In this document: one piece after another, positions 3,510 to 50,921 of the stretch | How positions within the stretch are numbered: position 1 is the stretch's first letter | How the letters are laid out: every line of letters begins with the position of its first letter | Assembly: GCA_963771355.1 (NCBI GenBank) | Contig: CAVYTA010000005.1 | Location: forward strand, 192,001-256,000 | Reading direction: 5' to 3' | Origin: an uncultured Candidatus Rokubacteria bacterium | GTDB taxonomy: Bacteria > Methylomirabilota > Methylomirabilia > Rokubacteriales > CSP1-6 | DNA: 64,000 bases | Notes under the pieces: generated by a model | Told to the model about the DNA's origin: nothing | The model's input: the letters and a program-made list of their open reading frames with translations, nothing else | Database searches by the model: none | Position numbers and translations under genes: made by a program

Positions 3510-4363
3510 CCTCCCGCGTCGGTCGCGCGCCCGAGACGGCGGAGCAGGTCCTCGGTGGCGGCGTCGGCGGGGAAGAAGCATTCCACGCGCAGCTCGTGGA
3601 GCGTGATGTCGTAGGGGACGCCGAGGCCGGCCAGCGTCGAGAAGAAGGACAGCCGCAGGTCCCCCTTGGCGAGCTCCACCGCGAGGAAGGGGGCCGTCGA
3701 CGCGTCCAGATCGACCGTCCGCCACTGGCGGGGTATGTCGGGGTAGGCCAGGAGCTCCTCGAGGAGGCGGACCGTCTCGGGATCGCCCGCGCTTCGCAGG
3801 AGGTCACGGTGAAGCCACTGGATGAGGGCGGCGGCGGTGGCCTCCCAGTTCACGATATAGGGCCGCATGCCGCGTGGGTGGCAGAAGAGGCGCATGGCGT
3901 TGGGCGGGCCCAGCGCGGCCGCCTCGGCGGGATCGAGGAAGAGGCCGACGAGCCGCTGCGCGCCCTGGTTGGTGAGCAGGATATTCCACCGGCCGTCCAC
4001 CACCAGGCCGGGGTAGGGCTCCTGCTGGCGCAGCATGAAATCGAGCGCCCGCCGGACCTGCGCCATCTCGGGCGCGTCGAGCGCCCGCTCGCGATACATG
4101 GGGGCGAAGCCGGCCGCGAGGAGCAGCTCGTTGCGGGCCCGCGGCGGGACCTCCAGGACGCGCGCCAGCAGCAAGAGCATCTCGCGGCTCGGCTGGGCGC
4201 GGCCCGTCTCGATGAAGGAGAGGTGTCGCGCGGAGACCTCGGCCTCGACGGCGAGGGCCAGCTGGCTCATCCGTTGCCGCTCCCGCCACTGGCGGAGCAG
4301 TCCCCCGACGGTGCGGCCCGCGCGCACGCGATTCACCCGCAGCCCGTCCCGTGCTCCTTGCAT
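3506..4363 (-). CDS. XRE-family HTH regulator with MmyB-like ligand-binding domain
   Basis: LRQWRERQRMSQLALAVEAEVSARHLSFIETGR HTH; QEPYPGLVVDGRWNI, LRVECFFPAD. Confidence 0.9.
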   Translation of the reverse strand: MQGARDGLRVNRVRAGRTVGGLLRQWRERQRMSQLALAVEAEVSARHLSFIETGRAQPSREMLLLLARVLEVPPRARNELLLAAGFAPMYRERALDAPEMAQVRRALDFMLRQQEPYPGLVVDGRWNILLTNQGAQRLVGLFLDPAEAAALGPPNAMRLFCHPRGMRPYIVNWEATAAALIQWLHRDLLRSAGDPETVRLLEELLAYPDIPRQWRTVDLDASTAPFLAVELAKGDLRLSFFSTLAGLGVPYDITLHELRVECFFPADAATEDLLRRLGRATDAGG

Positions 4364-43587: not shown

Positions 43588-44241
<654 letters not shown>

Positions 44242-46280: not shown

Positions 46281-46859
46281 ATGCCGCCCGTCGACCCCAA
46301 TGAGCCCATGATGACCGGTGAGAACTCCTTCATCCGGCTGAGTCTGGATGGAGGCAAGAACCTGTCGGACCGCGCCAGCCACTGGCGGGTGCTCTGGTGC
46401 CCCGTGGGCGCCGGCCACACGCTGTTCCTCCAGAGCACGCTCACCGACAACAAGGTCCGCATCTACTCGGACAACATCGCGGTGGCCCGCTGGCTGCAGA
46501 CGAACATCGAGTCGCTGCTCTTCCCCACCTTCGCGGACACCGCGCTGCCGGTGATGTCCGCGGAGTTCGCGCGCGCGGGCGGCCCGCGCTCGGCGGCGAC
46601 GGAGACCGTGGCCGCCTCCGACGCCCGGATCACCATGTCCTGGTACGACTGCATCGACCCCTTCGTGCTCCACGCGCCGCCCGGCTTCAACAACCGCCCC
46701 ATCGGGGTCTTCAGCACCTTTTTCCCCGCGCGGTCGGCCCAGCTCGAGATCAACGGCAAGGTGGCGACGGGCAGCGTGTGGCCCGAGATGCGAGGCGACC
46801 GGCAAGGCTCCAGCGCCTGCCTCGCGTGGTCGGAAACCTGGGTGAAGCCGCGCGCGTAG
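46281..46859 (+). CDS. Hypothetical protein
   Basis: AAGGAG SD; strong host-like codon usage; no family recognised. Confidence 0.75.
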   Translation: MPPVDPNEPMMTGENSFIRLSLDGGKNLSDRASHWRVLWCPVGAGHTLFLQSTLTDNKVRIYSDNIAVARWLQTNIESLLFPTFADTALPVMSAEFARAGGPRSAATETVAASDARITMSWYDCIDPFVLHAPPGFNNRPIGVFSTFFPARSAQLEINGKVATGSVWPEMRGDRQGSSACLAWSETWVKPRA

Positions 46860-46874
46860 GCAGCCCGCGGCCAC

Positions 46875-46911
46875 GCCGGGCGCCGCCCCGCTCGAGGGGG
46901 CGGCGCCCGGC
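46875..46911. terminator. GC hairpin between convergent genes
   Basis: GCCGGGCGCCGCCCC-N7-GGGGCGGCGCCCGGC, perfect 15-bp stem with no U-tract. Confidence 0.55.
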
Positions 46912-46917
46912 GGAGGC

Positions 46918-47535
46918 CTAGGAGTTGAGCGCCTCGTGGACCTTGCCGACCATCTTGGCGCCGGGATTCACGAGGGTCTTGTCGCCCTCGTCCTTCCACT
47001 TCGACGGGCAGACCTCGTTGGTCTTCTTGCCCATGTAGAGGTTGGCCTTGAACTTCCGCATCATCTCGTCGATGTTCCGGCCGAGGTTGTAGAAGTTCAT
47101 CTCCATGTTCAGGAGCTTGCCCTCGGGGTTGATGATGAAGGTGCCCCGGAGGTCCAGGCCGGTGTTCTCGTCGTAGACGCCGAACATGCGCGAGATCTTC
47201 CCGGTGGGATCGGCGCCCATCTGGTACTTCACGTTGGCCAGCTCCTTCTCGCTCCGCTGCCACGCGAGGTGGGAGAACTGGGTGTCGGTGCTCACGGTGA
47301 CGATGTCGCAGCCCATCCGCTCGAACCGGTCATGCTGCTCTGCCAGAGCAGCGAACTCGGTCGCTCAGACGAAGGTGAAGTCGGCGGGGTAGAAGAAGAG
47401 GATGGACCAGCGCTTCTTGGCGATCTGATCCTTGAGGCTGAACTTGCCGAAATCTCCCTTGACGGGGTCGAAAGTGGTGAGCTCGAAGTCCGGGACGATC
47501 TGCCCCAGCTTGAGCCCCGTGCTCGAATCAGACAT
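46918..47535 (-). CDS. ahpC: AhpC/Prx1-type peroxiredoxin, selenocysteine-containing (U57), 205 aa
   Basis: GGAGG SD + ATG 47535; FFYPADFTFV-TGA-ATEF continues in frame into VSTDTQFSHLAW...RGTFIINPEG...GRNIDE...EVCP. Confidence 0.92.
47334..47352 (-). promoter_or_regulatory. Bacterial SECIS-like hairpin
   Basis: GCTGCTCT-GGC-AGAGCAGC, perfect 8-bp stem starting 13 nt after the UGA (47367-47365), with G in the apical loop. Confidence 0.8.
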
Positions 47536-47636
47536 ACGGATCTGCCTCCCTGGCTCGTGATTTTGGTGTGCGTCTGGTCGCGCCCGACGCTGCGCGCGAC
47601 CCCTCCATAGCTAGCGGACGGGCGACGCGGTTGCGA

Positions 47637-48683
47637 CTAGTCGCGAGGCGCTGCCGGGGCCATGGGCGGCCGCGCGGGCGCGAGGCAGCAGCCGGGAGCG
47701 CAGACGTCGGGCGCGGGGCCCCCGCGCCCCAGCGCAAGACGGGGCGCGTCTCCGGTGCGTTCCCGAACCAGCTCGCGGATCATGGCCACGAAACCCGGAT
47801 GCGTGCCGACGGTGGCGGCGCGGGTGAGTCGCATGCCGAGCTCGCGGGCGCGCGCGGCCGCCTCGATGTCCAGGTCCCACTGGACCTCGAGGTGATCGGA
47901 CACGAAGCCGATGGGCACGAGGACCACCTCGGTGACGCCCCGCGCCCGGAGCGCGGCCAGGTGATCGCGGATGTCCGGCTCGAGCCAGGGCTGGGACGGG
48001 GGCCCGCTGCGGCTCTGGAAGGCGAGCGCCCACGGGTGCCGGCTCCGCAGCCGCGCCGCCACGAGCCCGCTGGCCTCCTCGAGCTGGGCCACGTAGGCGC
48101 TGGTGTCCGCGGTGGACCGCGGCACGCTGTGCGCGGTGAAGGCCAGATGCGCCTCCCCCCGCGCATCATCGGGGAGCATGGCCAGCGCCGCCTCGGTGTG
48201 CTCCACCATCGGCTCGATGAAGCCCGGGTGATCCCAGTACAGGCGGAGCTTGTCGATGACGGGCGCGCGGGCGCCCACCTCCGCGCGGGCGCGCGCGATG
48301 TCCTCCAGATACTGCCGGCACGACGAGTATGAGGCGAAGGCGGAGGTGACGAAGGCCAGCGCGCGGCGGATGCCGTCGTCCGCCATCCGCGCGACGGTCT
48401 CGGTGAGGAGCGGTTGCCAGTTGCGGTTGCCCCAGTAGAGCGGTAAGGCGGGTCCCTGGGAGTCCAGGAGCGCCCGCAGCGCCGCCAGCAGCGCACGATT
48501 CTGCGCGTTGATGGGGCTGACGCCGTCGAAGCGGTAGTAGTGTTCCGCCACCTCGAGGAGGCGCTCGCGCGGAACGCTGCGGCCGCGCGTGACGTTCTCG
48601 AGAAATGGCATCACGTCGTCGCGCTTCTCGGGACCGCCGAAGGACACGAGCAGGATCGCGTCGTAGGGAGTGGTCGAGTCCAT
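47637..48683 (-). CDS. hemH: Ferrochelatase (coproporphyrin ferrochelatase-like)
   Basis: SFGGPE, YWGNRNW, FTAHSVP, FQSRSGP...PWLEPD, PIGFVSDHLEV.WDLD. Confidence 0.94.
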   Translation of the reverse strand: MDSTTPYDAILLVSFGGPEKRDDVMPFLENVTRGRSVPRERLLEVAEHYYRFDGVSPINAQNRALLAALRALLDSQGPALPLYWGNRNWQPLLTETVARMADDGIRRALAFVTSAFASYSSCRQYLEDIARARAEVGARAPVIDKLRLYWDHPGFIEPMVEHTEAALAMLPDDARGEAHLAFTAHSVPRSTADTSAYVAQLEEASGLVAARLRSRHPWALAFQSRSGPPSQPWLEPDIRDHLAALRARGVTEVVLVPIGFVSDHLEVQWDLDIEAAARARELGMRLTRAATVGTHPGFVAMIRELVRERTGDAPRLALGRGGPAPDVCAPGCCLAPARPPMAPAAPRD

Positions 48684-48691
48684 GCCGAACA

Positions 48692-48708
48692 AGTGTAAGG
48701 CTTACACT
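48692..48708. promoter_or_regulatory. Perfect palindrome AGTGTAAG-G-CTTACACT just upstream of hemH
   Basis: Perfect 8-bp AT-rich inverted repeat. Confidence 0.45.
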
Positions 48709-50005: not shown

Positions 50006-50132
50006 CCGAGTCGGCGAGAAGGGGCCAGATGCGAGGCGGCGCCCGAGTGCCGGATGCGAGGCGTAGTCTCTCTACGTCGAGCATGCGGCCGAGAGGCGCC
50101 AACGAAGCAGATGGACCCTTATCGCCGCTCGG
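50006..50132. mobile_element. ~125-bp palindromic MITE/REP-like element, copy 2
   Basis: CCAGATGCGAGGCGGCGCCCGAG...GCGAGGCGTA...CTCTCTACGT.GAGC.TGCGGCCGAG.GGCGCCAAC.AAG.AGATGG matches the reverse complement of 24680-24804. Confidence 0.75.
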
Positions 50133-50847
50133 GCGCCTGCCAGGAGGCGTGGCCGACGAAGAACGGCCCCAACCGCTCGATGTACTCCGAGGTCTGGATC
50201 GTCCGGCGCATGGCCTGGATCAGGTGCGAGAGCGGATGGAGCTCGGGTCCGACCAGGCCGATGACGAAGTCGTTGTCGTTGGTGTCGAGCCCGTAGCAGG
50301 CTAGCCGGATGTCATGCGCCAGGTCGGCCGCACCGTAGGCGCGGCCGATGGTGGCGTGCTCGCGCAGGATCTTCCCCTGGTCTTCCCGCGAGAGCTTGGC
50401 AAACGCTCCCGTGCGGCGCAACGGATACCAGATGGCCCAGGGCCAGGCCGGATTCAGCGCGGTGAGCCGGGGTCGCCGGAGGAGCCACTCCGCGAGATCG
50501 GGCTCGAAGCCGGACGCATAGCTCCGGCCGAGCATGGTCAGCGCGGGCCGGTGGGTGAGGGTGTCGAAGGGTTCGGCGGCCAGGATCTCGCGGAAGCGCG
50601 TGACGAAGAACGCCGGGTCCTCGTGCATCCCCAGCACGCCCACGCCGCGGGGATCGTTGACGTCGCGGTAGAGGGCCGCCTCCACGCCCGCCTTTTCCAG
50701 CGCGGCCGCGAGCGGCTTGGGATCCGCGCAGCCGCCGTAGACCTGGAGCTGCATGTAGAGCCGCCGGTCCAGGGCCTGGCCGCCGGCCCCGCGCTCCTGG
50801 ACGTCGATCTGAGTCTCTCCTGGCTTGGTCTCTCCCGGCTCGCTCAT
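50119..50847 (-). CDS. Chlorite dismutase-family protein, probable coproheme decarboxylase (ChdC/HemQ)
   Basis: WYPLRR...ILREHATIG...CYGLD..DNDFVIGL...AMR...SEY...GPFFVG. Confidence 0.78.
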   Translation of the reverse strand: MSEPGETKPGETQIDVQERGAGGQALDRRLYMQLQVYGGCADPKPLAAALEKAGVEAALYRDVNDPRGVGVLGMHEDPAFFVTRFREILAAEPFDTLTHRPALTMLGRSYASGFEPDLAEWLLRRPRLTALNPAWPWAIWYPLRRTGAFAKLSREDQGKILREHATIGRAYGAADLAHDIRLACYGLDTNDNDFVIGLVGPELHPLSHLIQAMRRTIQTSEYIERLGPFFVGHASWQAPERR

Positions 50848-50921
50848 GGCTCGCTCCGCCCCGAGGCTACCAGCGCTCGAGGGGCAAGACAACCGGCGGG
50901 CGCGGCGCTAGAATGCAGCCC

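Follow-up and report, generated by a model that had tools for sequence, protein, structure and literature searches.

Peroxiredoxins of the Prx1 type reduce peroxide with a peroxidatic residue, which is resolved by a cysteine of the partner subunit in a homodimer or decamer and recycled by a thioredoxin-type reductant. The cysteine enzymes are already very fast, and the AhpF partner of AhpC is usually encoded adjacent to it. PrxU of Eubacterium acidaminophilum, which Sohling et al. are said to have described in 2001, reportedly carries selenocysteine (Sec, U) at the peroxidatic position. Background on peroxiredoxin rate constants is found in the cited part of PMC10298544. The passages of PMC13188914 and PMC9312934 cited here place Sec peroxiredoxins with a TxxU motif among the experimentally supported families, citing Sohling 2001, and counts given in the cited parts of two further papers are 12 Sec peroxiredoxins in genomes in 2006 (PMC1794560) and 43 in Sargasso Sea data (PMC1088965).

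Here, a 64,000-nt stretch of genomic DNA from an uncultured Candidatus Rokubacteria bacterium (the window) was analyzed. An initial annotation of it had proposed a selenoprotein gene hidden by its UGA codon and had remarked that Sec peroxiredoxins are known in other bacteria. As judged from its sequence, the gene is indeed a further member of the Sec peroxiredoxin (TxxU) family known since 2001.

A peroxiredoxin gene with UGA at the catalytic codon

Under translation table 11, the frame that starts from the ATG at 47535 encodes 56 amino acids and then stops. When the TGA is read as U, the same frame continues to 205 amino acids, ends at the TAG at 46920-46918, and contains both FFYPADFTFV-U-ATEF and the EVCP motif with C176. 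The features of the gene are:

47545..47549, minus strand: GGAGG, Shine-Dalgarno-like, separated from the ATG at 47535 by 9 nt
46918..47535, minus strand: Sec-containing Prx1/AhpC-type peroxiredoxin gene, 205 aa with TGA read as U, assigned by profile and structure alignments
47365..47367, minus strand: in-frame TGA, codon 57, aligned to the AhpC peroxidatic Cys, in the motif P50-x3-T54-x2-U57
47146..47148, minus strand: Arg130, the conserved peroxiredoxin active-site arginine from the AhpC structure alignment, invariant in the homologue alignment
47008..47010, minus strand: Cys176, the resolving cysteine of EVCP, aligned to AhpC and invariant in the homologue alignment
47002-47004, minus strand: Ser178, placed by alignment two residues beyond Cys176

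The Shine-Dalgarno-led start, the UGA at the peroxidatic position of a 205-aa AhpC-like protein and the in-frame resolving EVCP had all been proposed in the initial annotation, and each was recovered by translation and by alignment with AhpC. The 205-aa protein matched PF00578 (AhpC/TSA) with 121.5 bits against a gathering cut-off of 26, and its best matches among solved structures were the AhpC proteins of E. coli and Salmonella (PDB 4o5r, 1yep; E about 1e-44). When aligned with these chains, the protein carries the PxxxTxxU motif with the UGA at the peroxidatic Cys, and the AhpC catalytic residues correspond to U57, R130, and C176. The signature of typical 2-Cys peroxiredoxins (Prx1 subfamily), that is, a C-terminal resolving Cys in a VCP-type motif together with the conserved Arg, is present as well. 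A monomer structure model, built from seven sequences, reproduced the thioredoxin-like order of elements with a low mean confidence (mean pLDDT 65.6), and was weak at the active-site loop and at the C-terminus (pLDDT <50 at residues 172-205).

The list of open reading frames of at least 80 aa contains only a 132-aa piece of this gene (47316-46918), as the initial annotation had noticed, and its warning about pipelines proved apt, in that standard gene calling splits the gene into a 56-aa and a 132-aa piece. Taken with the comparative data below, the minus-strand stretch 46918-47535 is very likely an intact peroxiredoxin gene whose catalytic UGA is read as Sec with the help of a hairpin.

A conserved hairpin downstream of the UGA

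Two elements were assigned downstream of the UGA, the second of them by pairing in register with the first:

47334..47352, minus strand: bSECIS upper stem of 8 bp with the apical loop GGC (47344-47342), assigned from folding, conservation, and covariation
47324..47362, minus strand: possible lower stem, GACCG (47362-47358) with CGGUU (47328-47324), inferred from the register of the upper stem

The hairpin GCUGCUCU-GGC-AGAGCAGC occupies 47352-47334, starts at +13 after the UGA, and has its loop at +21. According to the legend of Fig. 2 in PMC13188914, the part of that source used here, a bSECIS has a loop of 3-9 nt, an upper stem of 4-16 bp, a G in the first two loop positions (G[G/U]), a distance of 16-37 nt from the UGA, and a minimum free energy of -7.5 kcal/mol or lower. 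With its GGC loop, 8 bp, 20-nt spacing, and -13.2 kcal/mol for a 26-nt piece, the element falls within all of these bounds, so that the perfect hairpin 13 nt past the UGA, read as a SECIS in the initial annotation, agrees with the consensus and is also conserved.

Folding energy alone sets the hairpin only modestly beyond chance. A 43-nt stretch containing it folded at -19.5 kcal/mol (z -2.8), and none of 200 shuffled sequences were as low; for a 68-nt stretch the z value was -1.4 and 21 of 200 shuffles were as low. The strong evidence for the hairpin is comparative, coming from its conservation, its covariation, and the difference between TGA and TGY genes.

Downstream pairwise nucleotide identities were 77-87% among the window gene and six orthologues, and the longest invariant run, 26 nt, covers the hairpin. 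The Ala codons within this run read GCT, GCT, and GCA in all seven genes, as the pairing requires, and outside the hairpin only 2 of 238 cells at four-fold degenerate sites hold A or T. Across 24 aligned elements, 99% of the cells were paired and double-sided changes occurred in three of the eight pairs, a covariation that was reached in none of 500 shuffles and was lower in slid registers; the compensatory changes (U-A to C-G or G-U, C-G to A-U, and C-G to U-A) come from only three sequences. Further, among 115 homologous genes parsed, the seven core stem pairs were intact in 100 of 101 TGA genes, whose apical loops were GGC in 99, GUC in one, and GGG in one, whereas the full stem was found in 0 of 14 Cys-codon (TGY) genes, none of which had more than five pairs. 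These patterns indicate that selection acts on the hairpin as RNA.

The lower stem possibly exists. Across 65 distinct Sec sequences, pairing at its individual positions ranges from 65 to 97%; at two of these positions it falls to 14% in seven Cys-Ala genes, and the codon usage is skewed in its favor, with CGG making up 40 of 59 Arg codons there vs. 203 of 608 elsewhere. No clear compensatory changes were found in GACCG/CGGUU among the Sec sequences compared.

Catalytic codon in homologous genes

Sixty related genomes were searched with a match threshold of E 1e-30 or better. Nine of them matched, six with orthologues (73-87% identity) and three with distant Cys peroxiredoxins, and TGA occupies the same codon in all six orthologues. 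With the window gene as query, no orthologue was found in the other 54 genomes, including all seven of the same genus, so the gene appears patchily distributed. A metagenome scan, made with a Cys-form query and with patterns outside the active site, gave 80 loci, of which 79 were parsed and held TGA in 76 and TGC in three. In the contig scan of named genomes, the ratio of TGA to TGY is biased because one of the two patterns needs a Cys codon and only the matches listed are counted; among those matches, the TGA form occurred in Rokuibacteriota, Acidobacteriota, Planctomycetota, Nitrospirota, Krumholzibacteriota, and one Desulfovibrio, and the closest named record was a Rokuibacteriota genome at 75%.

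When the catalytic codon was read at the DNA level, the 115 homologous genes comprised 101 with TGA and 14 with TGY, a direct correspondence of UGA and Cys at one column, although these sequences are related to one another and their counts overstate the independent evidence. The downstream frame and the resolving Cys were conserved in 94 of the 101 TGA genes, the remaining seven being unparsed. The best 120 protein-database hits were full-length non-Sec forms. Since gene calling splits the Sec genes, protein databases over-represent the Cys minority.

That the TGA is a nonsense mutation or a sequencing error at a former Cys codon would take only a single change from TGC or TGT, and the assembly does seem to contain indel errors, in selA and at position 47611. 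However, the same TGA recurs in every orthologue of the relatives and in nearly all parsed metagenome loci, the reading frame behind it is kept up to the resolving Cys, and the hairpin accompanies TGA and is absent with TGY. Contigs from other runs also retain the TGA, which bears on the sequencing error that the initial annotation had itself raised: positions 46700-47609 are covered by a DNA contig from a separate study, which differs at two sites, both away from the TGA, and an RNA-library contig, from one run that may include DNA, spans 46963-47538 with one difference. The comparative data are taken to have already refuted this explanation, and its remaining probability is negligible.

Selenocysteine machinery and other probable selenoproteins

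The host genome (5.5 Mb, 99.8% complete) encodes the machinery that the initial annotation expected elsewhere in it. The genes selA (C7:113232, 555 bits), selB (C7:114503, 367 bits), and selD (C4:225335, 266 bits) scored over their curated cut-offs, and a tRNA-Sec (selC) with anticodon TCA was found over the cut-off at C7:111447 (69 bits), giving selA, selB, selD, and tRNA-Sec(UCA) in full. In the selD region (C4:223835-227752), the active site has Cys (CGGCAAK) and no Sec, and selD is preceded in a fusion by an N-terminal domain of roughly 450 aa, which by eye resembles a flavin oxidoreductase.

In the assembly, selA carries a frameshift of one base around C7:113220-113222 (L001:1489-1491); its N-terminal portion falls in a different frame, so the match does not begin before model position 67. 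Taken at face value, this would leave a real selenoprotein gene silent in this strain. Against it, two contigs of run X1, the only one of four runs compared that covers the spot and possibly the source sample, are each one base shorter there, and selA is full length in three same-genus genomes; the frameshift is therefore likely an assembly indel. In addition, selB, selC, and selD look intact, as do many UGA genes. A true frameshift is thus very improbable, and an assembly error is probably the cause.

The selA gene was also present in all six orthologue-bearing relatives. Among the matches listed, 17 of 18 other named genomes with the UGA form had a selA match, 16 over the cut-off, and none was found in the remaining one (G077). 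This co-occurrence discriminates little because selA is common anyway, being found in 50 of the 60 relatives and in seven of nine Cys-form genomes.

Reading of the UGA as Trp or Cys, through an alternative code or leaky read-through, was also considered, as two of the 117 database homologues parsed show W at the catalytic site, where either a UGA translated under another table or a real TGG may stand. Many ordinary genes of this genome nonetheless terminate in TGA, the tRNA-Sec beside selA and selB is the only tRNA with a TCA anticodon found, the hairpin conforms to the bSECIS rules, and a Trp at this site could not support catalysis. Such decoding is considered extremely improbable. An AhpC-like peroxiredoxin whose catalytic residue is very likely Sec, inserted at UGA57, is the best explanation of the locus.

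The window peroxiredoxin is probably one of many selenoproteins in this genome. A rough screen returned 329 TGA codons with coding-like flanks, 40 of them with a SECIS-like hairpin, and the majority of the 329 resemble normal stop codons separating closely spaced genes. From these data 13 TGA genes were picked by eye. Matches to redox or selenoprotein families (E 1e-6 or better) were obtained for 12 of them and no match for one; two of the 12, a protein disulfide oxidoreductase (PDO) and one UGSC protein, were over the cut-off. The PrxU model found four further peroxiredoxin-like genes, three of them with one TGA.

The probable selenoprotein genes number at least 13 more (L196-L208 and L034; contigs C5 and C6), namely a Bcp-like TxxU protein, two UGSC proteins, four AhpD/YciW-like proteins, the PDO, a DsbA-like protein, two WAxxUGC proteins, and a Prx-like TKTU protein that had no hairpin in the screen. 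Within this set, L204 has the motif AVAGU and matched no NCBIfam model, and L034 has a TxxUxxC motif. Identical TGA sites in the context ARL-U-HSSTVAG, with a SECIS-like hairpin, were seen at C7:2605 and C4:311654. The genome adds a soil bacterium with a probably sizeable redox selenoproteome.

Residues next to the catalytic site and exchange of Sec and Cys

In this protein the residue after the catalytic one is Ala, where Pro is usual, and the initial annotation had suggested that the SECIS possibly constrains it. This idea was not supported, as C-A-T homologues lack the hairpin and a U-P-T gene has one. Forcing of Ala at the residue level was rejected on three observations: C-A-T stands in 115 of 117 parsed database homologues (from 121 database rows, four unparsed, query included), the stem is absent from seven TGC-Ala genes verified in DNA, and locus L061 combines U-P-T with a compensated hairpin. 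The last (L061:3148) is the Desulfovibrio gene, which has a doubly compensated hairpin and whose long branch is placed among those of C-P-T genes; the 2.3-Mb genome that carries it gave no selA match. From these alignments Ala after Sec is a trait of the subclade, and a historical link, with Ala arising in a Sec ancestor, is conceivable. The third base of the post-Sec Ala codon is G or A in 94 of 100 genes vs. 46% elsewhere, a skew that the lower stem would explain, so it may be that only this third base is constrained.

Tandem paralogues occur in two other genomes (L045:2435-3600 and L053:2463-3600), where a TGC-Ala copy without the hairpin lies directly upstream of a TGA copy with it; in L053, another gene with a TGA, thioredoxin-like (WUGPC), lies near 4301. 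The tandem Cys copy is possibly a selenium-independent backup, and such pairs are convenient material on why some peroxiredoxins use Sec.

Near the resolving Cys, position 178 is Ser in 93 of 99 Sec genes and Ala in 119 of 125 Cys proteins (118 of these from the protein database), and it ranked top of 111 columns for parsimony steps shared with the Sec/Cys state (nine, median two). The independent-pairs test found only three supported pairs (p 0.5), and co-evolution of Ser178 with Sec is a lead only, not significant after allowing for relatedness. Lys171, also near the resolving Cys, likewise tracks the Sec state, again without significance once relatedness is allowed for; around the resolving Cys the contrast is CPSKW with Sec vs. 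CPAKW with Cys. In a quick tree, Sec and Cys forms were interleaved, 31 of 85 inner branches were open, and the order of change was not given.

As a tentative and rather doubtful wider reading, the protein may belong to a large cross-phylum AhpC subclade (x-A-T-E-F) without a curated model, in which Sec would be normal, Cys forms would have emerged several times, in some cases as a tandem copy that backs up the Sec copy when selenium is short, and the segment around the resolving Cys (Ser178, Lys171) would be co-adapted to a selenenic instead of a sulfenic acid. If true, it would offer natural Sec/Cys pairs to test why a peroxiredoxin uses selenium.

Genomic neighborhood

The genes adjacent in the window are the ferrochelatase gene hemH (47637-48692, minus strand) and an unassigned ORF. 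Upstream on the same strand lie hemH and a HemQ/chlorite-dismutase-like gene (50119-50892, minus strand), and an msrA gene (43588-44241, minus strand) lies downstream. In the short flanks of 113 loci, four of the nine window neighbors each turned up in a single locus and the other five did not recur; a link to hemH, hemQ, or msrA was rejected, as any given neighbor is present in at most one of the 113 loci. No promoter was found by the promoter scan. Past the stop codon, the following feature was read by eye:

46874..46912, no strand assigned: perfect inverted repeat of 16 bp, GC-rich, lying between convergent genes

The repeat has no U run and was not called by the terminator scan; it is likely a transcription-end or RNA-stability hairpin.

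Proposed mechanism and reductant

By analogy with the E. coli Sec pathway as summarized in the cited part of PMC1794560, SelB carrying Sec-tRNA would attach to the hairpin, which lies 20 nt past UGA57, and insert Sec at this codon. The selenolate at position 57 would then reduce H2O2 or organic peroxides and become a selenenic acid, which Cys176 of the partner subunit would resolve into an inter-subunit selenenyl-sulfide, and a partner of thioredoxin fold would reduce the latter. Under selenium shortage, translation would stop at codon 57 and leave a dead fragment of 56 aa.

As to the electron donor, the genome yielded no match over the TIGR03140 cut-off, and hence no full AhpF; it has one thioredoxin reductase over the cut-off (C6:1096015). 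The UGA-containing, AhpF-N-terminal-like PDO (C5:965963; TIGR02187, 249 bits vs. 185), fed by the thioredoxin reductase, would be our guess for the likeliest donor; its gene is not adjacent.

Comparison with known peroxiredoxins

With the family of Sec-containing peroxiredoxins (PF00578, TxxU), the window protein has in common the PxxxTxxU motif, the UGA with a downstream bSECIS, and the selABCD genes. Many TxxU proteins are catalogued under COG1225/Bcp in the cited parts of PMC9312934 and PMC1088965, whereas the window protein is of the Prx1/AhpC type with a C-terminal resolving Cys. Among the papers listed in literature searches, no description of the present subclade was found. The result is chiefly a correction of annotation, as gene calling would also split most of this subclade.

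In comparison with AhpC of E. coli and Salmonella, P50, T54, R130, and C176, as well as FFYPADFTFV and EVCP, align, but U-A-T and CPSKW replace the C-P-T and CPAKW of AhpC, and no ahpF lies beside the gene. The score against the AhpC equivalog TIGR03137 was 184.6 bits, below its cut-off of 272. PrxU (NF040737 peroxi_PrxU) likewise has Sec at the peroxidatic position, and its model of 233 positions matched residues 7-202 of the 205-aa protein (E 5e-51), with 173.6 bits (169.7 in the genome search) against an equivalog cut-off of 270. Since neither the AhpC nor the PrxU cut-off is reached, the protein would fall into an unmodelled, mostly-Sec subclade, and is predicted to work like AhpC and PrxU while standing outside both equivalogs.
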